Below, piece after piece: positions 1,792 to 64,000 of a stretch of DNA of 64,000 nucleotides. Positions within the stretch are counted from its first letter, which is position 1. The number at the start of each line of letters is the position of its first letter. The notes beneath the pieces are model-generated. The model worked only from the letters and a program-made list of their open reading frames with translations, searched no databases and was not told the DNA's origin. A program made the position numbers and the translations under genes. The stretch is from Sedimentisphaerales bacterium (lineage in GTDB: Bacteria > Planctomycetota > Phycisphaerae > Sedimentisphaerales > SM23-30), in the NCBI GenBank assembly GCA_963663965.2, contig CAXXFK010000010.1:249593-313592 (forward strand), given 5' to 3'.

Positions 1792-2178
1792 ATCGAGTAG
1801 GCATGGGCTTTGCAGCCCCAACCTCTCACACCACCCGGCGTGCCTGCTCGGTACCGGTCGATTTCCTATGGCATTCCATTCAAATCCCGCCATCTGCGAG
1901 ACAGACTGATCAATCCTCGTTCTTTAAAACCATGGCAAATTCATGGCTTGGTGCGATTGAGGCAGGGCGCTTTTCCGCCAGTAACCCACACCGCTCAATG
2001 CGCCGAGCCAGGCCTGGTATTCGGCGACACCGTGGCAAATAAAGAACTTGGCGGTCGTATAGTTCCGCTTGAGTTGTTTGAGTTTGATGACTCGCAACTT
2101 GCGGCGGATCCAGCCGTCCAGCTTCTTCAGATTCGCGGCGCGGCGGATATGTCGGTAATAATTGAGCCATCCGGTCAT
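1792..2178 (-). mobile_element. 3' remnant of a class C group II intron (maturase C-terminus plus domains V and VI)
   Basis: Minus-strand GWLNYY...LDGWIRRKLR maturase segment, then GACCGGTACCGAGCAGGCACGCCGGGTGGTGTGAGAGG (DV-like) and a DVI hairpin ending CCTACTCGAT, the typical IIC 3' end. Confidence 0.88.
1867..2178 (-). pseudogene. Truncated, frameshifted group II intron RT/maturase fragment
   Basis: Only the X/maturase domain is present. After NLPWF an extra T gives TAA; the shifted frame continues KERGLISLSRRWRDLNGMP*. Confidence 0.8.
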
Positions 2179-2204: not shown

Positions 2205-3872
2205 TCACCATTTCATTACTGCGCCGGTATCTGCTGAAGTGGCCATTCTGGCATATTTACCCAGGGCGCCATGATTAATTCTGGGTTCCGGAGCAAACCA
2301 TTTTTCACGGCGTTTGGCCAGTTCCGCATCCGATAACTGAGCCCGGATTACACCGGCCGGGATATCGATTTCGACAATGTCACCCGGTTCCAGCAATCCG
2401 ATCGGACCGCCTTCCGCGGCTTCCGGACTGATATGCCCGACGCATGCCCCCCGCGTGCCTCCGCTGAAACGGCCATCCGTAATCAACGCCACACTGTCCC
2501 CCAATCCGGCGCCCATAATATAGCTTGTCGGACTAAGCATTTCCTGCATTCCGGGGCCACCCTTGGGGCCTTCATAGCGAATCACCACAACGTCTCCGGA
2601 CTTGACCTTGCCACCCAGAATACCGGCACAAGCCTCCTCCTGACTTTCAAAAATAACAGCCGGACCGCTATGACGAAGCATTTTTTCCGATACACCGGCG
2701 CTCTTGACAACACAACCTTTTGGCGCCAGGTTACCCTTTAAAATCGATAAGCCGCCCTTGGCCGAATAGGCATTGTCCAGAGGGCGTATACAAACCGGGT
2801 CCTTAATGTCAGCCTGAGCGATATTCTCTCCCAGGGTCTTAGTCGTGACGGTAATACAATCCGGTTTGATCAGTCCAGGCACTTTGCTGATCTCTTTCAA
2901 GATCGCACTGATCCCGCCGGCCTCATGGACATCTTCAATATGATAAGAACTGGAAGGCGAAACTTTGCAAATGGTCGGGGTCCGGCCGGCAATTTCCGCA
3001 ATCTGGTTCAAAGTATAATCGATCCCGGCTTCATGGGCCACCGCCAGCGTATGCAGAATGGTATTAGTAGACCCACCCATAGCCACATCCAGAGCGATGG
3101 CATTATCCAGTGCCGATTTAGTCAATATATCCCTGGGCTTAATATCTTTTGCAATCAATTCCATAATTTTTTCGGCAGCAGCACGATATAAACTCTCGCG
3201 CCGTGGATCCACTGCCGGAATCGTGCCATTGCCCGGCAATGCCAGCCCAATCGCTTCACACAGGCAGTTCATACTGTTGGCCGTAAACATACCGGAACAA
3301 CTGCCACAGGTCGGACACCCTTTGTCTTCCAGCTCTTTGAGCTGATTTTCATTAATTTTCCGGGCGTTGTAAGCCGCCACCCCTTCGAAAATGGAGATCA
3401 AATCCACCGCTTTGCCATCAGACGTCTTGCCGGCTTTCATCGGTCCGCCAGACACAAAAATCGTGGGAATATTGACCCGCATGGCAGCCATTAACATGCC
3501 GGGGACAATTTTGTCACAATTGGGAATGCAAATCATGCCGTCAAAACAATGCGCCCGAACCATCGTTTCAACGGAATCGGCGATAATTTCCCGGCTTGAC
3601 AATGAATATTTCATCCCGGTATGGCCCATTGCCACGCCGTCACAAACCCCTATGGTATTGAACACAAACGGCACTCCCCCAGCGACCCTTACCGCATTTT
3701 TAATAAACTGCCCCACTTCATTTAAATGAACATGACCAGGAATAATGTCGACATGGCTATTGCAAATGGCGATAAACGGCTTACCCATATCTTCATCTTT
3801 GATACCGCACGCCTTCAACAGCCCACGATGCGGGGCTCGCTCAAAACCTTTTTTGACCATATCCGAATTCAT
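2205..3872 (-). CDS. ilvD: Dihydroxy-acid dehydratase
   Basis: [50 protein letters not shown] and TDGRFSGGT motifs. GGAG precedes the ATG at 3872. Confidence 0.97.
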
Positions 3873-48542: not shown

Positions 48543-50507
48543 ATGGCCCAACCACAAGCTGAACTCACCTTAAAAGCCCTTATTCTGGGTATCGTACTGT
48601 CCGTCATTCTGTCTGCCGCCAATACCTATCTAGGTCTTTTCGCCGGCATGACCGTTTCGGCCTCCATTCCGGCCGCCGTGATCTCCATGGGCATCTTCCG
48701 CATGTTCCGTAACAGCACGATTCTTGAAAATAACCTGGTCCAGACCGCCGCCTCCGCCGGTGAATCGGTCTCCGCAGGTATAATTTTCACCATCCCGGCG
48801 CTGGTTATCATGAACTACTGGGAGACATTCAACTACTGGTGGGTGACGATTATTGCCGCGCTGGGTGGTTTGCTTGGTGTGCTGTTTACAATCCCCCTGC
48901 GTCGCTCACTGATTGTTGAAAGCGATCTTAAATTCCCTGAAGGGGTGGCCACGGCCGAAGTCCTTACCACCGGTCAGCAGGGCGGCAAGGAAATCTGGTA
49001 CATCGTCCAGGCTTCTATCGTGGGCGCAGTCTTCAAACTGGGTCAGGCCGGACTCAATCTGATGACCGATGCCATTTTTTACACGAAGGCCGCAGGCTCG
49101 GCTGTCTTTAAAATCGGCACGAATCTCAGCCCGGCGTTGATTTCCGTTGGTTATATTGTCGGCCTCAATATCGCTGTGCTCATCTTCCTGGGCGGCGCGC
49201 TTAACTGGATGGTTGCGATTCCAATCTGTACTTCTCTTGATTCAGTGATAGACATGCTGCCAAAAGATCTGGATCTCACAGCATTAAGAACACCTGAGAA
49301 AGCTCCTGAGTTTGCGAAGTTAATCTGGGCAACATTCACCCGATACATCGGTGTGGGCGGCATGGTGGTAGGAGGTATCTGGACTATTTTCAAAATGCGT
49401 AACTCTCTACTGGGCGGTATTACCTCAGGCCTCAAAGCTTATCGTAAAGATGACTCCGGGCAGTCGCAATCCCAGGATATCCCCTCTGAGGAAAAAGACA
49501 TGCCCATGAACTGGGTTTTATTCCTGATCCTCGGTTCCATTGTTCCCATCTTTTTACTATATCAAAACGCGACCGGTCATCTAACCATCAGCCTGACGAT
49601 GTCTATCATCATGGTGATCGCCGGTTTTGTCTTTTCGGCCGTAGCCGGTTATATGGCCGGTCTGGTGGGTTCATCCAATAATCCCATTTCCGGTATCACC
49701 ATTGCGACGGTACTATTCTCCTCCCTGCTTTTGCTGCTTATGGGCCTCTCTACGGAAACGAACGGCCCGGTCGCCGCGATTATTATTGGCGCGGTGGTCT
49801 GTTGTGCCGCGGCTATCGCCGGCGATAATATGCAGGATCTCAAAGCCGGCCATATCCTCAAGGCCACCCCCTGGAAACAGCAGGTCATGCAGATGGTTGG
49901 TACGGTCAGCGCCGCTTTCTTTATCGCGCCCATTCTTAACCTGATGCTGAAAGCCTACGGCTTTGCCGGGCATTCCTCCGCCCAAGCCAATCCTCTGGCC
50001 GCCCCACAGGCTACCCTCATGCAATCGGTAGCGGACGGTGTTTTTGCCCGCAACCTGCCCTGGGCCTTTATCGCCATAGGCGCTATTATTGCCGTGCTGG
50101 TTATCATTCTCGATGAAATTCTCATTCTGCGAAAAAGCAGCTTCCGTACCCCGGTGCTGGCAGTCTCTATCGGAATCTATCTGCCCTTCGAACTTTCCGT
50201 ACCAATCCTGATCGGTGGTATTATTCAGTTTTTCGCGTCACGGTTCATTAAACGCAACAATTATTCTTCCACCGATGCCGAAGCGGCCAACCGACACGGG
50301 CTGCTCTTCGCTTCCGGTCTGATTACCGGTGAAGCCCTGATGGGGATTCTGCTGGCGATTCCAATTGTTATCATGAATAAAGACAAACCGCTTAAGATTA
50401 TGGATAATCCCAAAGAATGGCCCGGTTTGATCCTGCTGGCCATTGTGCTGGTCTGGCTTTATGTCACGGCGATTCGCAAGGCGCATAATAACAATAAAGC
50501 CGGATAA
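48543..50507 (+). CDS. Oligopeptide transporter, OPT family
   Basis: YLGLFAGMTVSASIP, ENNLVQT, FPEG, SSNNPISG, QDLKAG and APQATLM. Confidence 0.95.
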   Translation: MAQPQAELTLKALILGIVLSVILSAANTYLGLFAGMTVSASIPAAVISMGIFRMFRNSTILENNLVQTAASAGESVSAGIIFTIPALVIMNYWETFNYWWVTIIAALGGLLGVLFTIPLRRSLIVESDLKFPEGVATAEVLTTGQQGGKEIWYIVQASIVGAVFKLGQAGLNLMTDAIFYTKAAGSAVFKIGTNLSPALISVGYIVGLNIAVLIFLGGALNWMVAIPICTSLDSVIDMLPKDLDLTALRTPEKAPEFAKLIWATFTRYIGVGGMVVGGIWTIFKMRNSLLGGITSGLKAYRKDDSGQSQSQDIPSEEKDMPMNWVLFLILGSIVPIFLLYQNATGHLTISLTMSIIMVIAGFVFSAVAGYMAGLVGSSNNPISGITIATVLFSSLLLLLMGLSTETNGPVAAIIIGAVVCCAAAIAGDNMQDLKAGHILKATPWKQQVMQMVGTVSAAFFIAPILNLMLKAYGFAGHSSAQANPLAAPQATLMQSVADGVFARNLPWAFIAIGAIIAVLVIILDEILILRKSSFRTPVLAVSIGIYLPFELSVPILIGGIIQFFASRFIKRNNYSSTDAEAANRHGLLFASGLITGEALMGILLAIPIVIMNKDKPLKIMDNPKEWPGLILLAIVLVWLYVTAIRKAHNNNKAG

Positions 50508-50535
50508 GTTTCTTATTTATATGAACTAAACATTC

Positions 50536-50570
50536 AGCATGGGCAGGCCGATTCTGCCCATGCTTTTTTT
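50536..50570 (+). terminator. Intrinsic terminator
   Basis: AGCATGGGCAG/CTGCCCATGCT stem followed by a T run. Confidence 0.85.
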
Positions 50571-50587
50571 CTTAAGATCATCCCCCT

Positions 50588-51211
50588 ATGTCAACAGAAA
50601 CCAAAGCCATTATTTTCGACCTGGGCCGTGTCATTGTCAACATTCACATCGAACGCGGCATCTTCGGCCAACTCACCAGTCGGCACAACGGCGAGCAGGT
50701 CGAACAGCTTCTTCTGCGGCTGATGTCTGAAGAACTGATCTGGCTGGAATGCTGCGGCAAAATCCAGCCTGAAGAATTCCATCGCCAGCTTTGTGACAAG
50801 TACCAGCTCGATTTCGATTATCATCAGTTTGTTGAACTCTGGGTTAACATTTTCACACCCATCGAGGGTATTCCCCAACTGATCGATGAACTTCGCAGCC
50901 ACTATCCACTCGGTCTGCTCTCCGATACGGATATCCTCCACTGGGAGCATATCCTGCAATTATGCCCGTTTCTGACCCGATTCGAAAACCCCACCCTCAG
51001 CTACCAGGTCGGCGTTACTAAACCCGATCCGCTGATTTACCAGCGTGCCGCCGAAAACGTTGGCTTTCCACTGGAACAATGCCTTTTCATCGATGATATG
51101 CCCCGTAACGTCGAAGGGGCCCGGGCCTGCGGGATGCAGGCTATCCAGTTTACCGGCCTTGAAGCCCTAAAAGCCGAACTGGCCCGGCACGGCCTCTATC
51201 GTATCGCTTGA
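50588..51211 (+). CDS. HAD-family phosphatase (YihX-like)
   Basis: FDLGRV, LLSDT, KPDPLIY and FIDDMPRNVEGA. Confidence 0.9.
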   Translation: MSTETKAIIFDLGRVIVNIHIERGIFGQLTSRHNGEQVEQLLLRLMSEELIWLECCGKIQPEEFHRQLCDKYQLDFDYHQFVELWVNIFTPIEGIPQLIDELRSHYPLGLLSDTDILHWEHILQLCPFLTRFENPTLSYQVGVTKPDPLIYQRAAENVGFPLEQCLFIDDMPRNVEGARACGMQAIQFTGLEALKAELARHGLYRIA

Positions 51212-51270
51212 CGCAGAACGGTACCAGCCTCGTCTTACTCGCGTCTCAGCGGTTTATTTTTCTATGCTCT

Positions 51271-53070
51271 TCATTTCATATCGGGGAACTGGTTCCGATA
51301 TGGCAACTGCACTCCCACCATGGTCTTAATCATCGCCTGCAATCTCGGATCAATCTCCGGTTCGCCAAAGCTGTTGGTGCGCCAGGTATGCCACTCCTTT
51401 TTATTTTGATTAAACCGGATCGGATGGCCGCTGGTTTGATTGATCACATTGTCTTCAACCAGAAATCCCATACTGCCTTCATCAAAGAAGATTCCGTTAT
51501 TGGGCGCCCCGCCATGGGCGTAGGCGGACCGATATACATTATAAATCCAATTGCCCCGGAGCGTGGTTCCGGGTTGGAGCCCCAGGGTGTAAATCCCCCC
51601 GCCATCGGCCAGTTTGGTCATGACATCATGAATCTGATTGTATGCCACCAGGCAATGTTGCTGGCTGGTGGGCGTCGAGTTCCAGCGATAACCGATAGAA
51701 ATCCCGGTATAGGGCATTTCGCAGACATGATTATGATGGATTCGGGTATTGGCCGAAAAGGCCGCGAAGATCCCTACGCAACCATAATTTTCCGCGGCGC
51801 AATGATGCACATAACACTGGCAGATTTCATTATCAACTGGAACATCGGCGGGATTCTCCCAGTCCTGATCCAGGACAGCAATCGGTTCATCCGGCCACCC
51901 GACATGTATCCCATTGCCACCGACATCGCCAATCTCACACCCCACCAGTCGATTCCGCCTGGAGCCCGCAGAGAAACCCACGGCTGATGGGCCGATATGG
52001 ACAAACCGGCAGTTCTCGAACAGGCAATCCTCAGCATATTTCAGCTTGACCGCCACTGGCATGGCCTTTTCGGGCAGTTCATCTGGAATGCAGGCGATAT
52101 TATTATAGCCCGCCTGGATGCCGCCATAGCCATCCGCCGGCAGTTGCCAGGCCGCATGCTCAAACACCAATCCTTCGAACTTGATATTACGTACCGGGGT
52201 TTCCGGGGTTCCAGCCACGATCAGCAGTGTTTCCAGCAGCGGTGCAACAATCTTTTTCTGATCGGGTTTCTCACCCGGAGCCATCTTTAGAATCAAGCGG
52301 CCGTCCTTGCGATTCAGATACCATTGCTCCGGTTGGGTGATGAATTGCGGATGATTTTCGAGATAAGCCGGTTTCCCTTTGGAGGCGGTTGTCGCTGAAT
52401 GGCCTACCCAACCGAGCGGGGTCGCACAGGTGACTTCATGGTCAGTTGCGGAGAGAATCAACGCCCGCGCAATCGACCAGTTCTGAATCACGATCAGTTC
52501 CACATCGCCTATCTCAATATCGTCCGGCAACGGCTGTTCGAAAGCCAGGGTCTTTACATCGTCGGAGACTCCGGCAATTGTCAGCAAGCCATCGGTGGGA
52601 TACCGGCCCCGGTCCAATCGCTTTTGATCGGCGTATAATTGTCGAAAAGACCATTGACCGGCTGCTACCGCCGGTATGGACGCCTCCCAGAGATCGTTAT
52701 TTTTCTTTTGCCATCCGGTGATGATGCGCCCGCCGGACAGTCGGGGCACTTCGCCGGGATAAGCCGCGTAGGTCACGCCGGCCAGTGTCGTTCCTGAATC
52801 CTCCGCAGCAAAAACCAGCGGACTGGTCAGTTGATATCGGCCGCCGCGTAAAACCACCCGCACCGGCTCGGTGGGATCGGACTGGATCTGTTCACGCACC
52901 AGCTGCTGTGCCCGTACCAAAGTGGCCACTGGTTTGTCGATCGATCCCGGATTGGTATCCGCCCCGTCCGGTGCAATATAAAATACCCCGGCCTCCGCCA
53001 TAATACTGGAACCGTAGAAACACAGATTATAAACTGCCAGAATCATTATACACCAAATCATTCGAGTCAT
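51271..53070 (-). CDS. Secreted right-handed parallel beta-helix protein (GH141-like)
   Basis: FYIAPDGADTNPGS, LRGGRY, PYTGISIG and DGGGIYTLG beta-helix repeats. Confidence 0.85.
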   Translation of the reverse strand: MTRMIWCIMILAVYNLCFYGSSIMAEAGVFYIAPDGADTNPGSIDKPVATLVRAQQLVREQIQSDPTEPVRVVLRGGRYQLTSPLVFAAEDSGTTLAGVTYAAYPGEVPRLSGGRIITGWQKKNNDLWEASIPAVAAGQWSFRQLYADQKRLDRGRYPTDGLLTIAGVSDDVKTLAFEQPLPDDIEIGDVELIVIQNWSIARALILSATDHEVTCATPLGWVGHSATTASKGKPAYLENHPQFITQPEQWYLNRKDGRLILKMAPGEKPDQKKIVAPLLETLLIVAGTPETPVRNIKFEGLVFEHAAWQLPADGYGGIQAGYNNIACIPDELPEKAMPVAVKLKYAEDCLFENCRFVHIGPSAVGFSAGSRRNRLVGCEIGDVGGNGIHVGWPDEPIAVLDQDWENPADVPVDNEICQCYVHHCAAENYGCVGIFAAFSANTRIHHNHVCEMPYTGISIGYRWNSTPTSQQHCLVAYNQIHDVMTKLADGGGIYTLGLQPGTTLRGNWIYNVYRSAYAHGGAPNNGIFFDEGSMGFLVEDNVINQTSGHPIRFNQNKKEWHTWRTNSFGEPEIDPRLQAMIKTMVGVQLPYRNQFPDMK

Positions 53071-53327
53071 TATAGAATCTCCGATGAGTCTGAGTTATCG
53101 TTAAGTATTTGTTCAGTATACATAAATAATCAGTGTTACAATTATTGCACTGTCAGACAGGCTATTCCTGGTTAACCCGATCCGCGCTAAAAAATGAGGT
53201 CAATCAATAAGGATTTCGAGGAGACCGATTACAAAGCGGTGGCCGGAATGCGCAGCGGGTCTGGGTGGATTGAGTTTTTTGATCAATCCATGGGTGTTAT
53301 GCTTTAGTTGTGGTGGCTGATGTTATC

Positions 53328-54167
53328 TTATTTTTTATCCTCCTGAATGGGGATATCGGCCGGGGGTTTGGTGGGGATGCCGAGGGCGTGGAGGGCTTCT
53401 TCGCCGTTCTGGTTGGCGAAATCGGTGAGGGCTTCGTAGCGGTTGCAGGCGTAACTGAAGACCTGATCGTCAGTTACGCTGTGGTCTTTCATCAATTCGG
53501 GCAGGCGGTCTTTGATGTATTCGGGGGCGAGTTTGGCTTCGCTGGGGTGCGTGGGGATTTTTGGGGGATCGGGGATGTGGACGCGGGGTAAGTCGGGAAA
53601 TGGGTACGGTGGGGGATAGGCATTGGGTTCGTTTGGAACGGGTTGTAACTGGAGTTGCTGAAGGAGTTTGAGTTTGGCCTGGAAGGTACGGTTGAGGTGG
53701 GTTTCGTAGCGGGCCAGGCAGTTGAAGGCGGGGACTTCGAGGGTGAAAGCCGTGCCGACTTCGTTGTGGCGTGGGAGATAGATGCTGGAGTGGGCGAAGG
53801 GCTGGTCGATGACGGTGTCTTTGCGGATTTCTTCGTTGGTGAGGCGGAGTTTATAGACGCGGGCGTCGACCATTTCGGCTTCGATGCGGCCGAGACGTTC
53901 CAGTCGCCAGGCGGCCGAGACGATCTGGTCGGCGATATGGCGCTGGAGGTAAGTTGTTGGTTTGAGGTCTTGTAACAAAGCGGCGCGGAACTCGAGGTAG
54001 GTGAGTTCGGATTCGCCGGGGACGATGAGGTGGGCGGGGTCCTGGCCGCTGAGGCCGTGTTTGATGGCATTTTTCGATGAGATGGCCTTGCCTTCGGGGG
54101 TTTTGGGGCCGGTGGATTTCTGGGCGTTGCGACGGTTGGCGCGTAGTCTTCTGAGTGACGATGACAT
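53328..54167 (-). CDS. Hypothetical protein of the NRRNAQKSTGP...KHG family
   Basis: GGAGG RBS at 54176-54180, basic N-terminus, helical core (AAWRLERL...EA; LARYETHLNR) and Pro-rich tail with NEPN. Confidence 0.85.
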   Translation of the reverse strand: MSSSLRRLRANRRNAQKSTGPKTPEGKAISSKNAIKHGLSGQDPAHLIVPGESELTYLEFRAALLQDLKPTTYLQRHIADQIVSAAWRLERLGRIEAEMVDARVYKLRLTNEEIRKDTVIDQPFAHSSIYLPRHNEVGTAFTLEVPAFNCLARYETHLNRTFQAKLKLLQQLQLQPVPNEPNAYPPPYPFPDLPRVHIPDPPKIPTHPSEAKLAPEYIKDRLPELMKDHSVTDDQVFSYACNRYEALTDFANQNGEEALHALGIPTKPPADIPIQEDKK

Positions 54168-54303
54168 GGTTGGTACCTCCTGTTTAGAAATTTAAAGTTT
54201 AAAATTTAAAATGCAAAATTGTGGTATCCGCCATTCGGCGGATGTTGGTTTTATTTTAGTTAAGTTTGGTTCGTTGTTCAGGTTAGAGTGATAATTTTTC
54301 ATG

Positions 54304-54618
54304 TTGGCTTCGTTTCGTTTTATGTTGGTATTCGCTGCGCTCATGGCTGGTTTTATCTTTCGCCTCCGGTGCGAAATCCTGTCGGTACGCCTCTACGAGG
54401 CGTGGGTTAAAATTTTAATTTTACGTTTGTTACCCAGGGTGGCGCTCATCCCGTTTTACGGGACTCGCTCTACCCTGGGCTATTTTATGCCGGCCCGTTG
54501 GGCTGCTTTTGGTATCCGCCGGAGGCGGATGATGTTTTTATCTTTCGTTATGTCAATTCAAATTTGAGACTCACAAGGCGATAAATCCACCCACAAGCTG
54601 CGCTTGAAGGTGGCACCC
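54304..54618. repeat. Multi-hairpin repeat unit 1
   Basis: Shares GTTGGTATTCGCTGCGCTCATGG, ACGCCTCTACGAGGCG, ATCCGC..GCGGAT and CAAG.TGC.CTTG blocks with units 2 and 3. Confidence 0.9.
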
Positions 54619-54670
54619 ATAACGGTATAAACATTTGATATTGATAAGGTTATGGTGATGTTTTTTGTCA

Positions 54671-54986
54671 TTGGGTTTGTTTCGTTTTGTGTTGGTATTC
54701 GCTGCGCTCATGGTTATTTTATCTTTCGCCTCCGGTGCGAAATCCTGCAGGTACGCCTCTACGAGGCGTGGGTTAAAAAATATACGTTTCGGGTTCGGGT
54801 ATTCCCGCCAATGAATTGGCGGGCTATGCGCTTTTGATCTCCTCCTGAGGCGGACCTGCGGTCTTCGAGATATTATTTGAATCCGCCTTGAGGCGGATGT
54901 TGTTTTTATTGTTGATAAGCTCAGTTCACATTGGAGTTCACAAGGCGACGAATCCACCCACAAGCTGCGCTTGAAGGGTGCCACCC
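54671..54986. repeat. Multi-hairpin repeat unit 2 (tandem, 367-bp period)
   Basis: Direct repeat of unit 1 with a different central hairpin module. Confidence 0.9.
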
Positions 54987-55009
54987 GGCACACAGCTTAA
55001 CCCCCAAAA

Positions 55010-55303
55010 ATGCGCAGAGAGGTTCTGCGGGCGTGGGCGATTGGGGCGGGGCACGCCGTGGTTGGTCGGGTGGTTCGGGGGCTTTTTAGTCGACTTTGGG
55101 ATTATAGACCGAGTTGCAATTAAAATCAAATTAAATATTATGTTTTTATTTTATTTAACATAATATTTATGGGTTTATGTTTATGTGACAGATTAGTATT
55201 AGAAGGAAAATTCGTCTGACAGATTCTTAATAGTCTATTTTTTAATGATTTATGTTGATTTCAGGAGTTGTCAACAAAATAATATACACTGTGTTTAATA
55301 AAG
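55010..55303. repeat. Non-coding control block, copy 1
   Basis: Colinear similarity to 59760-60051. Confidence 0.88.
55101..55129 (-). promoter_or_regulatory. Sigma70-like promoter pointing into the repeat units
   Basis: Minus-strand TTGATT-17 nt-TATAAT. The TATAAT is conserved in copy 2 (59851-59856). Confidence 0.6.
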
Positions 55304-55376
55304 CCAAAACGAGATTGAACCTGCGTATAAAATTGGACGATCTAAAGACTGCCTCTGATTCGCAGTATTCGACGAG

Positions 55377-55673
55377 GTGAATATGGAAGAGACGGGTCCG
55401 TCTTCGCAAAAAAAGACGATCGAGCAAAGTATTCTCGACGCACGCCAACACATGGTTAGTGTAGCTGAAGCGGAACAGGAACTCGGGAATGGTATCAGTA
55501 AGGATACAGATTGGCTCGATCTCAAACGACAGATCCTTGCTACGGACGAGTTATGGTATTTCAATACGCCCGAAGCAACCTGGACCCGGGCTATACCCCG
55601 ATGCGGCATGGAGGGATACGCTCTCGTTCGAGGCGGATGTGTGGTCGCTGAGTATTTTTTGTCGATGAGTTAG
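55377..55673 (+). CDS. Small hypothetical protein
   Basis: GAGGTG RBS before the ATG at 55383 and DELWYF...W...G.EGYALVRGG motif. Confidence 0.7.
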   Translation: MNMEETGPSSQKKTIEQSILDARQHMVSVAEAEQELGNGISKDTDWLDLKRQILATDELWYFNTPEATWTRAIPRCGMEGYALVRGGCVVAEYFLSMS

Positions 55674-56162
55674 TCCGCGTGGGCAGTGCCCCCACACAAA
55701 TTGTATTACTGGTTAATACTTAGATATTTATTATGATTATCGGATGTATCAACAAAATAATATACACTGTGTTTTGAAATGACACCTGTTTTTATAAGGA
55801 TAGCAAAGTAGCCGCCGTGCTGATAAGAGGGGAAAAGGGGACATTCTGTTTTCTTTCCTGCCATCGCCTTTTTCAGGATTAAACTTACAGTCATTATGCC
55901 AAGGAAAGCCCGGGCCAATCGCATAGCGTGAGTACCGTTAGGATGAGGCATGTAGTATTCAACAGATTTAAACTAATAAAATATTTCATGGTGACAGTTG
56001 ATGAGATACAAGATCATAAAATTTGTGATTCTATTTATTATTCTTGCCATTATCATACCACCATTTATAGGCCTGGTATTAAATAGTCATCATTCTATTC
56101 GAAAAAACAAATATCTTGCTACATTTAATGTATCACAAATTGATAATGGAGTTGATTTTAAA

Positions 56163-57487
56163 GGTTCTTCCGAAAAATGAGTAGTTAATGTTGCAAAAAG
56201 AGAGACATGACTTTACTGTTTGAGGAAAAAAATAAAACCTCATATTAGGAGCTAAAGTCATGTCCACAAGTATGTTGTATCATACTTTTGGTGTTCGAGG
56301 TGTTCAATACCAAAAGACAGAATATTTTTGCGGGCAAGAGCGTGATTCACGGCATCTTGCCGGCGGATAGTCTGCGTTGCCCTTGTTGTAACTCCCGTAA
56401 TTTCATTTACTTCGGTCACAAGGCCCGGAGGTTTGCCATGGTACCCGCCGGTCTGCGTCAAATGGAGTTGCTTGTCACTATTCCCCGATTGAAATGTCTG
56501 GCGTGCGGGGCCATTCGTCAGCCTCATCTGCCATTTGCCGACCCCAAGAAGCATTACACCCATGCGTTGGAACGGTATGTCATCGATTTATGTCAGGCGG
56601 CTTCCCTGCAAGAGGTGGCCCGACGGACCGGCTTAAGCTGGGATACCATCAAATCGATTCATAAGTCCTGGCTAGGTCGACGGTACCGAAAGATTTCCCT
56701 GAAAAAGGTTCGTTATCTGGGGATTGACGAATTGTATCTGGGCAGGAAAAGCAAATACATCTCGCTGGTAACCGACCTGGAAAGCGGACAAATCTTGCAT
56801 ATCGGCCAGGGCAAAGGCCAAGAGGCCCTGGTGGGATTCTGGGGGCGTGTCCGACGCAGCCGGGCGGTGATTGCCGCGGTGGCTACCGATATGGCCAGTG
56901 GTTTTATGACCAGTGTCCTGAAAGAACTGCCGCAAGCCAAACTGGTGCTGGACCATTTTCATCTGGTCAAATGGTTTAACGACAAACTGACCAGTTTACG
57001 CCGGGATTTGTACCGGGAGGCCGATACCATGGGCAAAGCGGTACTTAAAGGCAGCCGCTGGCTGCTGCTCAAAGCGCCGGAGAACCTTAAATCCCATGCC
57101 GATAGCGCCAAAGATGAACGGCACCGGTTGCAGGAGGCTCTGCAACTCAACCAGCCGCTGGCCACCGCCTATTACATGAAAGAACGGCTCCGTCTCCTTT
57201 TTGATGCGATCACGGCTCCGCTGGCTGAACAGGAACTTAAACGCTGGATCAGCCAGGCGCAAACCAGCGGGATTCGGATCCTGCTGGATGCCGCCAAACA
57301 ACTGCAACTCTGGAAACCCTTCCTGCTCAATTGGTATGACCATCCCATCAGCACCAGCAAAGTCGAAGTCAATAACCGTAAAATCGGCCTCCTGCAACGA
57401 ATGGCTCATGGCTACCGCGATCAGGAATACTTCTATCTCCGGATCCATCATATCCATAACCAAAACTACTCATTAACCGGATGAGCC
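56163..57487 (+). mobile_element. ISL3-family insertion sequence (1325 bp)
   Basis: Imperfect terminal IRs GGTTCTTCCGAAAAATGAGTAGTT / GGCTCATCCGGTTAATGAGTAGTT. 8-bp TSD ATTTTAAA at 56155-56162 and 57488-57495. Confidence 0.95.
56260..57484 (+). CDS. ISL3 transposase (apparent frameshift near 56325-56329)
   Basis: CPCC...CLAC zinc finger, LGIDE, ATDM, DHFHLV, VEVNNRKI and AHGYRD. The RBS-led start MSTSMLYHTFG is out of frame by one base. Confidence 0.9.
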
Positions 57488-58417
57488 ATTTTAAATTCAA
57501 ATTAAACGCTATAGCATCTCGCATCCTGCATGACAGGGCGCCTCACATCTTAATAGTATTTCCTGAAGATGAGACAAAATATAACTATATGGAATTTCGA
57601 CAGGATTGGCCTTTAGTAATCAATATGGAAATCTGTGAATCTGATACTGGAAATGTCGTATTTAATTCTGATTTAGATAAAAATCATATGGTTGTAACGA
57701 ATTGGCATGAACCTCATTTCTCTGTTATGTTAGAATGGCGGGAGCTATCTCCAAATTTCATATTCAAACCCGAAAAGCAATATACGGTTATAATGAAAGT
57801 TGTTCAACCCTATGTTGAGATGGGAAAAGCTGATATTTATCTCCATTGGTTGGAGTGAAAAATTTGAGGTTTGCCGATACGGAAAAGATCACTGCAAGGG
57901 ATTTTGATGGATTGAAGCTTGATCCATTTCCATGCCCATAATTAATAAAGCGGTGTTATTGCTCTGATATTTACTATTTATAATCATAAACACCAAACTC
58001 ACGTGATTTGTAAAGTCCGGGTAAGATTGGTTTTATTTCACCGGTCGAGTAGACGAACATTTTTGTTTGTTGGCTATTTTACGCGGATTTTCAAACGGGG
58101 GTGTTTGTATTACTATTATCCATCATAATATTACTATTAGCCATTTTCATTTAATCGTATTTTGATATGATAAAATATTGATATTAGCAGATTGAGGGAT
58201 TTTCGAAATCAACCAACCTCGACAATCCATTGAAAGGGTTGGCTGCGGCGAGGTGGATCTTTGGCCTTGCGGCCAGTTCGCGTGGGCAGCGATCGTCCTA
58301 CTTTGCTGCTTACATTTTCGCTCGGTTTCGTCATGAAAATTATTTTGTCAGGCGCTCTTGAAAAAGCGCTTATTAACGAAGTCAAACAATCATCGCATCC
58401 TGTCAAAAAGGAAAAAA

Positions 58418-59287
58418 ATGTCATTTTCCAGAAAAGCATTTACGTTGATCGAGTTGCTGGTTGTGATATCGATTATCGCGTTGCTGGTCGCGATTCTGCT
58501 GCCGGCGTTGAACAAGGCTCGCGAACAGGCGAAAATAACCGTGTGCGCCAGTAATCAGCATCAGTTGATAATCGGGGTCATTACCTATAGCGCGGACAAC
58601 GATGGTAAACTGCCGCCGCCGTCGTCTAATGTGGCCCGACCCTGTCTGCTGGCGAGAAACAAGGCGGCGACCGACGATTATCAGTATCGGTACCTGGGTA
58701 AATATTTGCAGGATGTCAGTATCTTCATGTGTCCGGTCTCAGGCTTTTCTTCTGACATGACAAAAGTGGTTGGCGGTGTGGCATACACGTATCAGCAATT
58801 GTACGAGAATATCGATGACTGGTTCAGCAAATACAGCGATGATTTCTATTGTTCCTACAACCTGTTCTGGAATTACAGCCGATTTGCCGACCCGGCTCTG
58901 GCGGCTTATAACACAGACAATAATCCGGATACTCGTATTCCATCGCGTGCTTTCAAAGGTCCCAGTAAGGAGTCCAAAAATCAATTGCTGGTTTGTGACG
59001 CCTTTAACTTTTCCGGGCAGCTTTCTCCGGGGAATACCTGGTACAGTACGCATAACTTCAAGGGCGGCAGTAAGCAGACAATCGATGGGTTTCCATACTA
59101 TGCCGGCGCGAGCGGGGTCGGCAGTCCAACAGATCTGGATACTGACGGTAACCTGCAGAAAGTCAAACTGAATGCCGGGTATCTGGATGCCAGTGTGAGG
59201 CCATATATATCGGGCGATACTGTCGGCCAGTATGCCGTCAGCGGCTGGGCGTTGACATTCATTCCTCCTATACAAGAATGGAAATAG
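58418..59287 (+). CDS. Prepilin-type N-terminal cleavage/methylation protein (DUF1559-like)
   Basis: KAFTLIELLVVISIIALLVAILLPALNKAREQA, CASNQHQ and terminal NAGYLDASV. Confidence 0.92.
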   Translation: MSFSRKAFTLIELLVVISIIALLVAILLPALNKAREQAKITVCASNQHQLIIGVITYSADNDGKLPPPSSNVARPCLLARNKAATDDYQYRYLGKYLQDVSIFMCPVSGFSSDMTKVVGGVAYTYQQLYENIDDWFSKYSDDFYCSYNLFWNYSRFADPALAAYNTDNNPDTRIPSRAFKGPSKESKNQLLVCDAFNFSGQLSPGNTWYSTHNFKGGSKQTIDGFPYYAGASGVGSPTDLDTDGNLQKVKLNAGYLDASVRPYISGDTVGQYAVSGWALTFIPPIQEWK

Positions 59288-59438
59288 CGACAAAGAGTAT
59301 CTGTTTTGATTGGTTTTTCTCAATGACTGGGAATTTATCAATGCATGTTGACGACGAAAACGGTTGTTATTACCATCAGGGGACATGAGAGGTTGATGGA
59401 ATTTTAATTTCATAGTGAAAAGAAGTTCCTACTTTGAA

Positions 59439-59748
59439 ATCGTTTTGTATTGGTATTCGCTGCGCTCATGGTTGGTTTTATCTATCTCTTTTGCGAGATA
59501 TCCTGTCGGTACGCCTCTACGAGGCGCGGGTAAAAAAATTTAATTTCATATTCGTTACCCAGGGTGGCGCTCATCCCGATTCATCGGGACTCGCTCTGCC
59601 CTCATAGGCTGTTTTATGCCGGCCCGTTGGGCCGCTTTGGGTATCCGCCTGCCAGCGGATGTTGTTTCGATATTTTGTTAAGCTCGATTCAAATTGTTGG
59701 AATCCACAAGGTAAGGTAATAAATCCACCCCCAAGTTGCACTTGAAGG
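59439..59748. repeat. Multi-hairpin repeat unit 3
   Basis: Diverged copy of unit 1 with compensatory stem changes. Confidence 0.88.
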
Positions 59749-59759
59749 CGCTACGGACT

Positions 59760-60051
59760 ATGCGCAGAGGGGCTCTGCGGGCGTGGCCGGTTGGGACGGG
59801 ACACGCCGGGGGTTGGCGGGTGGTTCTGAGGCTATTCAGTCGACTTTGGGATTATAGGCCGGGTTGCAATTAAAAGAAAATTAAATATTATGTTTATATA
59901 TTTTATAACAAAATATTTGTAGTTTTATTTTTTTCGGCAGATTATATTAGAAGGAAAAATCGTCTGTCTTGTTCTTAATGTTTTATCGGTTAAAGAATTA
60001 TGTTGATTTTGGATGATGTCAACAAAATAAAGGTCACTGTGTTTTATAAAG
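59760..60051. repeat. Non-coding control block, copy 2
   Basis: Colinear similarity to 55010-55303. Confidence 0.88.
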
Positions 60052-60280
60052 ACCCGGACGAATACCGTTCACCTGGATACCAGTCCAGTCTCACTCAAGG
60101 GAATTGGTTTTCTCTTCAATTCTATCTGAACCGCTCTATGACCTGAAAAAAGCACTCATCCACATCTGGTTATCTGACAAGCCATTATATCATAATATAA
60201 AATTTATTTTGAAAGCGAGTTTTGCCTGGATATATTTATGATATAGTATGTCATTTATATATCCAATACTGGAGGAAAAT

Positions 60281-61105
60281 ATGAGAACCAAAAGTCTGAT
60301 CGTCTGTTCATGCCTATTGATGGTTGCCACCTATACTTTTGCCATGCAGGCCGGTCCCCAGGTAGTCTGGCAGGAGAATTTTGATAATGAGCCCTGTGCC
60401 GGGTGCGGCAATGAGCGGGGAAACTGGATCTCTTCGGGTGGATTTTATTACAGCCTGAGTCCCAATAACTGGCCCCCCACCTATACTTCATTTCCACCGA
60501 ATCTGCGCGATTTTACCATGGAATGCGATATCAAAGGGACATCGGACGGCGGCATCTGGCTGCGAAGTCATTACGACAATAACACCGTTACCGGCGTTTT
60601 GCTGGTCACCGGAGGCGATGGACGCACATTTGACGGTTTTTACTGGCATACCCTGTCCGGCGATGCGTATTTTCCGCAGGTCAACCGCGCGGAATATTAC
60701 CCGGTGCAGGGCGCGGATATTCATCTGCGAATTGTCGTACAGGGCAATCATTATGAAGCCTATGTCAATGGTTCGGAAACCCCCATCACCACGCTGGATG
60801 TTGAAGGGTACCCCTGCGGCAAGGTTGGTCTGTACAGTTATTCCGGCCAGACATTTGATAATATCGTTATTTACGCCGAGCAGGGATCCTGTGATCTTAC
60901 CGGTGATTGTATGACCGATCTGGAAGATGTGGCCATCCTATCGAGCCAATGGCTCTTGCAAGAATGCCAGGGCCGTCTCTGGTGTCATCAGGCAGACATT
61001 AACCTGAACGGACTGGTTGAGATGGATGACTTGCTGTTGCTGATCGATCACTGGCTGGTGAGCGAACCGGATATTCGCTATTCGCAGACTTTAAAAATAC
61101 CTTGA
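60281..61105 (+). CDS. Secreted beta-sandwich (DUF1080/LamG-like) protein with dockerin-like C-terminus
   Basis: GGAGG RBS, signal peptide, GKVGLY...FDNIVI and duplicated DLTGD..DLED / ADINLNG.V..DDL. Confidence 0.75.
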   Translation: MRTKSLIVCSCLLMVATYTFAMQAGPQVVWQENFDNEPCAGCGNERGNWISSGGFYYSLSPNNWPPTYTSFPPNLRDFTMECDIKGTSDGGIWLRSHYDNNTVTGVLLVTGGDGRTFDGFYWHTLSGDAYFPQVNRAEYYPVQGADIHLRIVVQGNHYEAYVNGSETPITTLDVEGYPCGKVGLYSYSGQTFDNIVIYAEQGSCDLTGDCMTDLEDVAILSSQWLLQECQGRLWCHQADINLNGLVEMDDLLLLIDHWLVSEPDIRYSQTLKIP

Positions 61106-61333
61106 ATTCAGGCTGGCATGGATGTGCGCCGGCTGGATTGGTGGCCGGAGATCATGGTTATGACATGCCCCGGTTTGAATGATCCGCAATCCAAGATAGA
61201 ATAAACACGCAAAATCAGTTGGCCTTGAAACACGTTTTTTAGCCCGGATATCTGGATACCCGGCGTGCAATGGGCCAAGATTCTCGTTTATAACGCTTCG
61301 GTCTCCCAATCCATATTGAGAAGAAGCGCGATA

Positions 61334-63178
61334 TCATTGAGCCCCTTCCAGCCAATTCTCTGAAAGACTGGCATAATCAATCAGGTCAACCGTACCGGAG
61401 AGGTTGAGGTCTGCATTTCCACAGTTTAGCGCCGATAGATCATCCTGAGCCATCCAATGATCAACAAAATAATATAGATCTTCCAAGCCAACCCCATCCG
61501 GACATAACCAATCCCCCGCCAGAGTCCGGCCGGAGAGACGGGGATAATTTTCCGCTTCGCAGATTGCCCAGATATCTTCGCTTCCATTGTAAGCTTCGTT
61601 AGTAAAATCCCAACCAGCAGCCGTGTAAGTGATCATGGATTTCATCTCCAACGTCGTTTTATCGAACAACGTCGAGAGTTCGCCATTGTTCTGCCCGGCA
61701 CCCGTGGTTTGTTGGCTGGTCTGATTGTCCCAGAAACTGTTTATGATATTCGCATAAGACAGGACGCTGACAGTTTTATAATTAAAGCCGACAAACCCTC
61801 CGACATATTGCGTGCCAGTTACGGCACCGGCGCAGTAGCAATGTTGAACCAGGGCGGTATCGCCCGCCCCCCAATTGCTCCCCAGCAAGCCGCCGATATA
61901 TTTTTGGCCCAGGGCTTTTCCTGTGGCACAGGAATTGAGGATAGTCCCCATATAGTTGAAGCCACAAAGGCCGCCTACGTAATCGAGCGTGGTCGATTGA
62001 GCATCGCCGGAGGCGGCACACTGGCTGATCAAGCCGCGGTTGTTATAACCGACAGCGCCGCCGACGTAATTACTCACACCCTCGACTGAGCCAAACGCGG
62101 AGGTATGGAGGCACTGTCCGGTATTTAAATGCCCGATGACCCCCCCCACCTTTGATTTGCCCACCACCTTGCCGAACGCCTGACAGTGCGAGACCGAGGA
62201 ACCGACGATCATACCGGCGATCCCCCCGATATTATCGGCGTTAATACCACTGATGACCATTTTAGAGATACCATGGGAGATATACCCGGTATTTTTATTG
62301 CTGCTGCCCACGATGCCCCCCTGGTTGGCTCCGCCGCCATTGGCGCTGACGGCGCCCGAAGAGACGCAGTTGACAATACCACAATAATCATCGATCGCGC
62401 CTACGATACCTCCCAGGGCATTTCTACCCAACACGGTGCCCGTAAAAGAACAGTTTGTGATGGTTCCTTTGATCATGGACCCGGCAATGCCACCGGCGAA
62501 ATTGCCGGTAGCAATATTGACGGAGCCCCGGGCGTGGCAGTCTTTCAGGGTGGTCCCCAGATGATAACCAACAATACCTCCAGCCACTCCGCTGGAAGCC
62601 TGCACCGCAACGTTGGCCCGACAATTTTCGATATTGCCATCCCCGGTCATTTCGGTATCATCATTGCCATCCAGTCCGGCAATGCCCCCCACATTGGTCC
62701 GGCCTTTGATGATTCCGCTGACGAAACAACCGGTAATGGAGCCGTTGAAGTTGTTTCCGGCGATCGCCCCTACATTTTTCCAGCCAGTAATATCCACATC
62801 CGTCATATTCAGGTCAAAAACTTTGCCGCCATTACCAATGCAGCCAAACAATCCGACAAAATCGGCATCTATTTGCCCATCCGTGTAATGAAATCCCGTT
62901 ATAGTACGATGATTTCCATCAAAATTTCCACTGAAGCATTCGGCTTGGCTGATTCCGATACGATGGAAAGCCGTGTCAGTATAAGAAGATAAATCCATAT
63001 TTTCCATGAGCTTAAACGATTTGTCCCAATCACCCGGCGATGTCCCCAATTCATCCAGCTGGGCGGCGCTGCAGATTAAAAAAGGATCGTCCGTGCTCCC
63101 GCTACCGCCGCCATAATTTCCTGAATAGACCCGCGTCGCCGACAGAAATAGCATAAAAATCCAAACTGACCTTTTCAT
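61334..63178 (-). CDS. Secreted GLUG-motif repeat protein with dockerin-like C-terminus
   Basis: GGSGSTDDPFLI, FSGNFDGN, many VGGIxG repeats, AGWDF...W...YPRL and ADLNLSGTVDLID. Confidence 0.88.
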   Translation of the reverse strand: MKRSVWIFMLFLSATRVYSGNYGGGSGSTDDPFLICSAAQLDELGTSPGDWDKSFKLMENMDLSSYTDTAFHRIGISQAECFSGNFDGNHRTITGFHYTDGQIDADFVGLFGCIGNGGKVFDLNMTDVDITGWKNVGAIAGNNFNGSITGCFVSGIIKGRTNVGGIAGLDGNDDTEMTGDGNIENCRANVAVQASSGVAGGIVGYHLGTTLKDCHARGSVNIATGNFAGGIAGSMIKGTITNCSFTGTVLGRNALGGIVGAIDDYCGIVNCVSSGAVSANGGGANQGGIVGSSNKNTGYISHGISKMVISGINADNIGGIAGMIVGSSVSHCQAFGKVVGKSKVGGVIGHLNTGQCLHTSAFGSVEGVSNYVGGAVGYNNRGLISQCAASGDAQSTTLDYVGGLCGFNYMGTILNSCATGKALGQKYIGGLLGSNWGAGDTALVQHCYCAGAVTGTQYVGGFVGFNYKTVSVLSYANIINSFWDNQTSQQTTGAGQNNGELSTLFDKTTLEMKSMITYTAAGWDFTNEAYNGSEDIWAICEAENYPRLSGRTLAGDWLCPDGVGLEDLYYFVDHWMAQDDLSALNCGNADLNLSGTVDLIDYASLSENWLEGAQ

Positions 63179-63532
63179 AACAAATTCCTCATACTTTTGA
63201 AAAAATATCAAATTACACTAATTTAATATACTGTGGGTCCAGAAACGAATTCCACCTAATTCGCCAAAATAAAGCCGGTCTTTTCAATTGTTCATTGGAT
63301 GATGGGCACTATGGGGATTATGGCACTAAGGGGCCGTAAATAAATAACACCTTCATTTCTCATCCCAGCTTGCCGGCATCCTCAATCTCCCGGTATATAT
63401 AATTTTTTATTTCGCCATACTCAAGGATATTTACATAGGAATAATTATATCTTTCGATTTATTATGCCGATTTTAAAGTATATGTCGATGCGACATTGCA
63501 GCATAGCAAAACCATTAACCAACAAAACCATT

Positions 63533-64000
63533 ATGACCCTGACAGCAATCCACTTATTCATCATGCGGGGATTCCAGACGCTCCGGCCAGACACCCATCG
63601 CCAGTTGAGATGGCGCCTGGTGCCAAGCCTGATTGCCGGCTGGCTGTTCTGTCTATCCCCGGTTTTTGCCCATGAATCGACGGAAATTAACCGATCTGGC
63701 GCCGGTTTACAAGCAGAGCAAGACAAAACGTCGTTTCTGGATCAACTGACACATGAAGAAAGGCTCTGGCTGGAAGAACATCCGGTGATCCGGGTGGGTG
63801 TGGACCAAAGCTGGCCGCCACTGGAATTTGTTGATAGTGAGGGTGAACACCAGGGGATGTCCAATGACTATCTGACCATTCTGGAAGGGAAACTGGGCGT
63901 CACTTTCGAACGTTATTCCAATCCGACCTGGCAGGCGACCATCGATCTTTTTCGCGACTGGAAGCTGGATATGACCGCCTGCCTGGCGGCAACGGAATCG
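63533..64000 (+). CDS. Probable BvgS/EvgS-type sensor with periplasmic solute-binding domain (3' end outside the window)
   Basis: Hand translation gives LTHEERLWLEEHPVIRVGVDQSWPPLEFVDSEGEHQG. Not in the ORF track because there is no stop in the window. Confidence 0.8.
   Translation, partial: MTLTAIHLFIMRGFQTLRPDTHRQLRWRLVPSLIAGWLFCLSPVFAHESTEINRSGAGLQAEQDKTSFLDQLTHEERLWLEEHPVIRVGVDQSWPPLEFVDSEGEHQGMSNDYLTILEGKLGVTFERYSNPTWQATIDLFRDWKLDMTACLAATES

Follow-up and report, generated by a model that had tools for sequence, protein, structure and literature searches.

The window analysed here is a stretch of 64,000 nucleotides (nt) from the genome of a Sedimentisphaerales bacterium (GenBank assembly GCA_963663965.2, contig CAXXFK010000010.1, positions 249,593 to 313,592 of the forward strand), and it contains three long, hairpin-rich repeat units, two of which adjoin a gene for a protein of 279 amino acids (aa), called orf279. 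The best-supported reading is that a repeat resembling a bacterial interspersed mosaic element (BIME) was recruited into, or grew around, a multicopy single-gene cassette, and that the resulting composite carries stacked terminators on the + strand and a promoter pointing outward. As to the units themselves, we give about an even chance to their being a lineage-restricted BIME-like mosaic repeat, that is, non-coding intergenic DNA of 0.26–0.38 kb built of interchangeable hairpin modules and arranged in tandem. The unit counts in the following are genome-wide, and all unit sequences come from the single 7.24-Mb genome that holds the window. The parts of the composite in the window are listed below (K, nucleotide divergence).

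53249 to 53327, no strand assigned: left end of the element, where similarity among 26 loci starts, with TGCGCAG (53249–53255), the hairpin GGATTGA/TCAATCC (53267–53289) and a degenerate copy of the signature described below
53328 to 54167, − strand: orf279, 279 aa, with 26 full-length copies in the genome, under purifying selection
54168 to 54225, − strand: 5' region of orf279, highly conserved (K 0.025 among the copies carrying it)
54274 to 54640, + strand: unit 1, with modules A (54300–54416), B1 (54417–54505), T (54506–54556) and C (54557–54625)
54641 to 55009, + strand: unit 2, with modules A, B2 (54779–54875), a T hairpin (54881–54898) and C (core 54961–54973)
55010 to 55135, + strand: block P, in which ATGCGCAG and the hairpin CGCAGA/TCTGCG come first and another GC-rich hairpin next; the block is repeated at 59760–59885
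55136 to 55303, + strand: block Q, AT-rich, the last 36 nt of which (55268–55303) are promoter-like
59399 to 59759, + strand: unit 3, a solo array without an adjoining orf279, with the H1 hairpin (59483–59500), B1, a T hairpin (59643–59661) and C (59732–59744)

Unit 1 (367 nt) gave 139 BLAST matches in its own genome. The best-conserved 20-mer of module A, the anchor, was found at 120 sites (at most 4 mismatches), and the context of the hairpin H2 comes after it at 94 of them, which gives 94 units. They form 44 arrays of 1–7 units each, 26 of them linked to orf279 and 18 solo, and the anchor-to-anchor spacing is 256–379 nt, except for seven local duplications of 29 nt. A repeat finder also detected the three units of the window, as families of 40–80 nt with 60–97% identity, and in addition a 173-nt repeat pair directly after units 2 and 3. 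When eight sub-segments of the window were mapped onto the 26 orf279-linked loci, the same order recurred, namely orf279 on the − strand, then units of the type T-spacer-A-B1 or T-spacer-A-B2 with C sometimes added, then C-P-Q and then unique genes. Similarity between the loci starts 0–90 nt past the orf279 stop codon and stops at the 36-nt motif ending Q, and the open reading frames (ORFs) on the outer side are locus-specific on both flanks at all 26 loci. Since the allele of the hairpin H1, the dinucleotide between H1 and H2, the type of B and the loop of T combine freely, with all combinations occurring, the units are mosaics. Taken together, arrays and cassettes span roughly 100 kb of one genome. 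In the contigs of two DNA runs (contigs only), the summed depth was about 77–129 over orf279 and unit 1 versus about 3 in the flanks, and no usable joints, empty sites or ends were seen in them.

Short imperfect palindromes that are present in many copies, mostly intergenic and clustered as mosaics, define repetitive extragenic palindromes (REPs) and BIMEs, and such palindromes were found here (94 units in 44 arrays, 30 C cores). The biology of REPs, BIMEs and REPtrons has already been described, with the same high-copy intergenic palindromes, clustered with other motifs, in which stems are kept and loops vary, as in the REP/BIME/REPIN and RAYT systems (PMC3733652, PMC6006769). Unlike REPs and BIMEs, the units here are 260–380 nt long, contain at least six modules in a fixed order and stand in tandem up to 7 times; moreover, their best-conserved block (anchor, H1 and H2) has no link to any Y1 transposase, and the arrays are tied to a 26-copy gene of an unknown family and to a promoter-like block. 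A similar arrangement is that of the large intergenic mosaics of Neisseria with CGTC-1 REPs, where REPs are interleaved with other repeat families; these belong to another organism and have other sequences, and neither a multicopy protein gene nor a regular tandem period is described for them in the part of the source available (PMC3733652).

Two modules can be traced to REP-type elements, for which the following features are needed.

54587 to 54613, no strand assigned: REP-type palindrome of module C (CCACC...CAAGC-TGC-GCTTG...GGTGG), with a core shared with related genomes
54473 to 54505, + strand: Acido-Lenti-1-like piece of module B1, 17.5 bits; a second one lies at 59600–59634, 25.1 bits (gathering score 37)
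Locus L070 (G000:C32:101200–104544): REPtron-like locus with a Y1 transposase gene at 1405–1851 (−) and Acido-Lenti-1 copies at 1314–1359 (−), 1904–1949 (+), 2221–2266 (−) and 2387–2432 (+)
Locus L069, 2063–2108: a further true Acido-Lenti-1 copy

The 33-nt core of module C recurs in other genera of the order with 91–97% identity, at 14 places in genome G048 and at 9 in G029. In G048 (locus L051), two inverted copies of the 30-nt C hairpin bracket a RAYT-like ORF, which we take to be a REP-associated Y1 transposase from its sequence hallmarks, as judged by eye. Because the core recurs and brackets this ORF, module C is regarded as a REP-type palindrome; a by-eye check for GTAG/CGTC at the foot of the stem found CGTC after one of three G048 copies. 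The flanking of a RAYT-like gene in a related genome is as in REPtrons, and the terminator-like behaviour reported below is a role described for such elements.

When B1 of units 1 and 3 was aligned with four true copies of Acido-Lenti-1 (RF01687), the second hairpin (GGCCC-GTT-GGGCC), the GGCTA linker and the place of the first hairpin in the same order proved to be shared. The differences are the score, 17.5–26.3 bits versus 37, and the first hairpin, which is enlarged in B1 by a nested hairpin. In sequence, B1 thus resembles a degenerate Acido-Lenti-1-type palindrome. Acido-Lenti-1 is a catalogued family, the function of which is called unknown (PMC2864571, Weinberg et al. 2010; bioRxiv 10.64898/2026.10.21.760802). 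Of 151 genomes in the order, 68 contain true RF01687 (53 above the cut-off), many of them with dozens of copies. In the genome studied here, copies of 42–47 bits flank, in inverted orientation, a gene for a 148-aa Y1 transposase (PF01797), and around the top RF01687 hits in other genomes a homologue of this gene was found in 4 of 30 loci (loci of at most 3 kb, homologue within 1.5 kb). In this genome, true RF01687, catalogued as a small RNA, behaves not like a free-standing RNA gene but like a DNA palindrome belonging to the Y1 transposase gene that it flanks. For annotation, the lesson is that compensatory changes in hairpin repeats need not mark RNA genes; such repeats can be DNA elements of the REP type.

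Module T contributes hairpins that are terminator-like in one direction; two of those in the array beside orf279 are listed here.

54226 to 54243, + strand: T hairpin ATCCGCC-ATTC-GGCGGAT with a T-rich tail, terminator-like
54514 to 54530, + strand: T hairpin ATCCGCC-GGA-GGCGGAT with a T-run, terminator-like

The ATCCGCC/GGCGGAT stem, which the original prediction had reported at four sites with four different loops, is indeed found at 54226–54243, 54514–54530 and 54881–54898 and, in the short form ATCCGC/GCGGAT, at 59643–59661. Genome-wide it stays unchanged beneath about a dozen loops; 40 hairpins have the consensus stem, 2 carry the compensated form ATCCACC/GGTGGAT and several have single mismatches. 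A scan of the + strand with a terminator consensus lists 54222–54247, 54513–54531 and 54881–54898. At least 7 T within the 14 nt after the stem were found for 50 of 60 T hairpins on the + strand and for 0 of 60 on the − strand. A GC-rich stem followed by a T-run is thus present in one direction, and by these sequence features the T hairpins are one-directional, terminator-like sites of the + strand. The functional strand had been called ambiguous on the ground of G-U-compatible changes; the asymmetry of the T-tails narrows this down and points to the + strand, while variants of the G-U type, split 3 to 2 between the + and the − strand, are uninformative and a genome-wide G-U strand test is swamped by chance matches. 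An antiterminator was also considered, since pairing between the H1 loop and the T hairpin is possible; it was ruled out, the H1 allele and the T loop being unlinked.

The claim that structure rather than sequence is under selection rested in part on the hairpin H1 of module A, the parts of which are located as follows.

54327 to 54346, + strand: anchor 20-mer, the best-conserved stretch of module A; on the − strand it is a mini-ORF start with an unconserved frame
54358 to 54376, + strand: H1 hairpin of unit 1, allele TTTCGC/GCGAAA; the same allele lies at 54724–54742 in unit 2
54387 to 54403, + strand: H2 hairpin of unit 1, ACGCCTC-TAC-GAGGCGT; also at 54753–54769 and 59511–59527

On re-reading the sequence, all positions and letters given earlier proved correct. 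H1 is TTTCGC-N7-GCGAAA at 54358–54376 and 54724–54742 and TATCTC-N6-GAGATA at 59483–59500, so that two pairs are changed on both sides, and CAAGC-TGC-GCTTG at 54594–54606 and 54961–54973 is matched by CAAGT-TGC-ACTTG at 59732–59744. Among the 94 units, 78 fit the strict H1 pattern, and every one of these is fully paired, 43 with TATCTC/GAGATA and 35 with TTTCGC/GCGAAA; a third paired form, the intermediate TTTCTC/GAGAAA, occurs in at least 1 of the 16 units that do not fit. At H2, the consensus is present in 81 units and a U-G pair in 2, while 1 unit is compensated (TGCCTC/GAGGCA) and 10 are unmatched. In the model-based alignment of 66 distinct module A sequences, pairing is found in 95.9% of the cells versus 89.7% in shuffles, a value that 0 of 500 shuffles reached, and when the partner is slid by 1–3 columns the pairing falls to 27–66%. 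Base changes therefore preserve pairing more often than chance. Changes on both sides occur in only 2 of the 12 pairs of H1 and H2, both from the same allele split, and one of the two is under-counted, the extra base of one allele being treated as an insertion in the model. Likewise, RNAalifold on 22 complete units gave a compensatory change in 2 of 42 pairs, and its covariation term was −0.63 kcal/mol. That the stems are maintained is clear, but the independent compensatory events are few and come from one genome; as all copies are from this single genome, the covariation claim is a weak one.

The sequence around the stems is conserved unevenly. In the first units adjoining orf279, the median K is 0.025 for the 40 nt next to the start codon, 0.19 for the T hairpin block, 0.43 for the spacer, 0.086 for anchor and H1, 0.113 for the H1-H2 block, and 0.33 after H2. 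Set against the median synonymous divergence (dS) of 0.28 among the orf279 copies, the anchor-H1-H2 block evolves at about one third of the synonymous rate, and the adjacent linkers (K 0.33–0.43) evolve at or above it. The hairpin block is thus conserved both in sequence and in structure, which speaks against the contrast drawn originally between the two: what stands of that claim is that the stems are kept (two or three fully paired H1 alleles, a constant ATCCGCC stem under about a dozen loops, a single compensated H2 and the T variants), and what does not stand is that sequence is free, since anchor, H1 and H2 are conserved in sequence (K 0.09–0.11 against a dS of 0.28), and the covariation derives from very few events. 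The same conservation argues against neutrality. Neutral repeated DNA, in which paired changes arose by chance or by the copying of whole alleles with no structural constraint, would agree with the presence of only two or three H1 alleles, with double changes in just 2 of 12 pairs and with the origin of all sequences, which are related, from one genome; yet the 78 pattern-fitting H1 units are fully paired with either allele, the T stems are constant beneath many loops, and the hairpin block stays far below the rate of its linkers, and we consider this explanation very improbable.

As to the novelty that an Rfam search was to confirm, a permissive scan of positions 50000–64000 and of 20 array loci found no Rfam family at the gathering score. 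Module A matches nothing known, while C belongs to a REP family and B1 resembles Acido-Lenti-1, and the expectation of novelty holds for only part of the unit. The covariance model of module A found no copy in 150 other genomes of the order, and a 22-base pattern searched over a metagenome collection matched 26 stretches, none of them with the module context. The 22–23-nt anchor of module A also occurs with 100% identity inside RHS/YD-repeat-type ORFs of other genera of the family, where it codes for ...SAMSAANTS..., for example in L056 (G019:C1) at about 1500–1530, at 10 more sites in G019, and in G024, G013 and G012. In some A modules (G000:C33:43921–44073 and C42, L021:2146–2289), an insertion of 36 nt lies between anchor and H1; it forms a perfect GC-rich hairpin, CATGGGCAACC...GGTTGCCCATG, and is probably another small palindromic element.

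The gene joined to the arrays is constrained by itself. Over 325 pairs of the 26 orf279 copies, the median dS of 0.28 goes with a nonsynonymous divergence (dN) of 0.026 and a dN/dS of 0.09, and the copies are thus old and individually constrained. The protein has no Pfam or NCBIfam match, its best hit in a PDB profile search has an E value of 0.19, and Foldseek with its model found nothing at E ≤ 0.001. The model (pLDDT 75) is a long helical hairpin, for which VIA-align returned generic helical hairpins only (best Z 8.1), and a search of a protein atlas gave unnamed clusters only. Relatives are widespread: 955 proteins were found at E ≤ 0.001, 537 of 559 candidate stretches of the genome collection were confirmed, and the record titles name Acidobacteriota, Planctomycetota, Proteobacteria, Chloroflexota, Actinomycetota and Verrucomicrobiota. 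The gene is carried by 12 of the 60 nearest genomes searched, in 1–5 copies each; among plasmids there is 1 weak record and among phages none. The neighbours of the homologues are unrelated housekeeping genes, and no Pfam family occurs more than 3 times among 135 neighbouring ORFs (PrmC_N, 3). The gene orf279 behaves as a stand-alone single-gene cassette.

A sequence signature, AACAAA[GC]CCAA, accompanies this family: in 74 orf279-family loci across phyla it was found 61 times on the gene strand and never antisense, mostly within 450 nt past the stop codon, and it is present in 9 of 17 loci of close relatives. In the genome of the window, 93 copies were counted versus about 7 expected, and on the gene strand the signature opens module A, in its strict form in 36 of the 94 units and in a relaxed form in 62. 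Other elements were noticed at homologues of orf279. A DUF3800-VII RNA motif (87.9 bits) lies in L036 (G057:C15) at 2082–2170, between a DUF3800-type gene and an orf279 homologue, where all runs in one direction save the annotated strand of the motif; this is a single case. Upstream of the homologues in L032, L033, L037, L040 and L048 there are triplets of short direct repeats (CTCTGTG, AATCCGTG and CTTCGTG, each ending GTGG), and short tandem repeats stand just before the ribosome-binding sites of homologues in several genera.

The position of the arrays could suggest that they are a long repeated 5' leader or promoter of orf279, acting on the − strand and including a regulatory upstream ORF that starts with MSAANTN. 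The arrays do lie upstream of orf279 on its strand, which also carries the family signature, the folding z-score of the − strand is the lower one (−5.9), an ATG mini-ORF begins in the anchor of most units, and a − strand promoter-like site is found just upstream of the first T hairpin. The mini-ORFs, however, range from 7 to about 150 aa, 17 of them being cut at 10 aa, and it is the nucleotides that are kept while the frame shifts; furthermore, 18 of the 44 arrays have no adjoining orf279, and the T-run asymmetry points to the + strand. We regard such a leader as quite unlikely. A conserved protein encoded by the − strand mini-ORF was ruled out, as the lengths vary and the frame is not kept. 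At the solo arrays, the upstream gene is co-oriented in 7 cases and opposed in 9, which is no bias.

The other end of the composite is formed by P and Q. The 36-nt motif that closes Q also occurs at 55746–55781 and 60016–60051, and 57 copies (at most 8 mismatches) were found in the genome, many of them outside arrays. It consists of a TTGTCA-type hexamer and a TATAAA- or TATAAT-type hexamer, separated by about 20 nt versus the classical 17, and at 21 of 25 Q ends the nearest downstream ORF of 100 aa or more runs in the same direction. From these features we infer that the Q end is a putative promoter toward the next, locus-specific gene; the claim is put no higher because the hexamer spacing exceeds the classical one. 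A sigma-54-like junction between C and P was considered by eye and dropped, since most copies have no GG. The motif, TTGTCAAC...CACTGTGT...TATAA, was further seen at about 30 other sites of this genome (G000), and an identical 40-nt sequence stands in front of 7 copies, which points to another repeat family or to a regulatory site that they have in common.

The motif TGCGCAG, followed by about 20 similar bases, occurs both at the left end of the element (53249–53255) and at the start of block P (55011–55017, also 59761–59767). Because it marks both places, gene and array lie between direct repeats, although at the left end only about half of the 26 loci have it without a mismatch. One could read the hairpins as site-specific recombination sites similar to integron attC sites, with TGCGCAG as the crossover core bounding a cassette of orf279 plus array, and the recurring motif with its following bases, together with flanking genes that differ at every locus, would agree with this. 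Against it, apart from the inexact left ends, orf279 matches nothing in Pfam, NCBIfam or the PDB, its model is a helical hairpin, and no recombinase was found; the flanking ORFs at the 26 loci are locus-specific (no Pfam scan was made of those), and the 135 ORFs beside homologues elsewhere are diverse in Pfam and include no recombinase family. An adjacent IntI tyrosine recombinase together with cassette-bounding hairpins, by which an integron is recognised, was not found, and we hold this explanation to be the least probable of those considered.

If the units are a BIME-like mosaic joined to a cassette, their stems would be kept since they must form in single-stranded nucleic acid, which for the REP-type modules would be single-stranded DNA as the substrate of a Y1/HUH enzyme and for T the nascent RNA. 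The arrays may grow and be reshuffled by unequal crossing-over and gene conversion, and the compensatory changes would then represent a few old allelic states spread by recombination and not ongoing covariation. In cis, the composite would line up several terminators ahead of a portable promoter, and it might both insulate and drive the neighbouring gene.

Several results weigh against this reading. For the 26 orf279-linked arrays, there is no obvious source of transcription entering them on the + strand. The sequence conservation of anchor, H1 and H2 exceeds what a palindrome needs, and the folding z-scores of −3.8 (+ strand) and −5.9 (− strand) favour neither the BIME-like reading nor that of small RNAs. 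The 11 Y1_Tnp (PF01797) hits of this genome have none of the 30 C-core copies within 3 kb; no transposase was found tied to module A, H1, H2 or T, and the motifs of the units are absent from 10 loci around such hits in this genome. The B1 copies (17.5, 25.1 and 26.3 bits) fall below the RF01687 gathering score of 37. Target-site duplications, empty sites and copy-number polymorphism were likewise not seen.

With no obvious source of + strand transcription leading into the orf279-linked arrays, a terminator in each unit is easier to explain by separate small transcription units than by an insulator. Small-RNA genes in multiple or tandem copies, ending in intrinsic terminators, form a general class, and the arrays could belong to it; a promoter of its own would then drive each unit on the + strand as far as T and give an RNA of about 250 nt, with the H1, H2 and B hairpins, to which the orf279 protein would bind or with which it would cooperate. 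The likeness lies in repeated structured units that end in a hairpin and a T-run on one strand (50 of 60 units); moreover, anchor, H1 and H2 are conserved between fast-evolving linkers, the stems survive double changes, and the signature is strand-locked to orf279-family genes across phyla (61 versus 0). The difference from the class lies in two modules that are REP-type DNA palindromes and in units that are known from sequence alone. Besides, the spacer from T to the anchor, with a K of 0.43, showed no conserved + strand promoter, and the search for module A in 150 further genomes of the order found no copy. The signature stands on the gene strand (− here), opposite to the terminators, and the acting strand of module A is thereby pulled in two directions. 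On balance, tandem small-RNA genes seem to us an unlikely explanation that nevertheless deserves to be taken seriously, as the main rival of the BIME-like reading.

A wider idea would combine the orf279 protein, the strand-locked signature and the structured units into one undescribed nucleic-acid–protein module with 26 paralogous plug-in cassettes. The units would then be small RNAs, or sites in single-stranded DNA, to which the invariant basic N-terminus of the protein binds, and from each cassette a different neighbouring gene would receive a promoter that is insulated and regulated, some of these genes being secreted- or surface-looking. We consider this rather improbable and put it forward as speculation. 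In the portions of the REP/BIME and Acido-Lenti-1 literature available to us there is no mention of the orf279 family or of the composite units, and no search was aimed at them. If the composite of array and cassette is a portable terminator plus promoter, it would show a bacterium rewiring many genes with one repeated part. The gene family to which the arrays are tied counts hundreds of members in many phyla and lacks a name, a domain and a fold match.

Two further features of the window are neighbours of the arrays. An ISL3-family transposase gene (DDE_Tnp_ISL3, E 9e-58; 56288–57484, + strand) has inserted between the two arrays and is unrelated to them. Another array locus (C28) holds a copy with 100% identity, and the summed contig depth is about 12–15 times that of the flanks, which indicates many copies. 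Finally, a weak L20-leader match at 50491–50575 (28.9 bits versus a threshold of 58.7) consists mostly of a strong terminator hairpin and is probably just a terminator.

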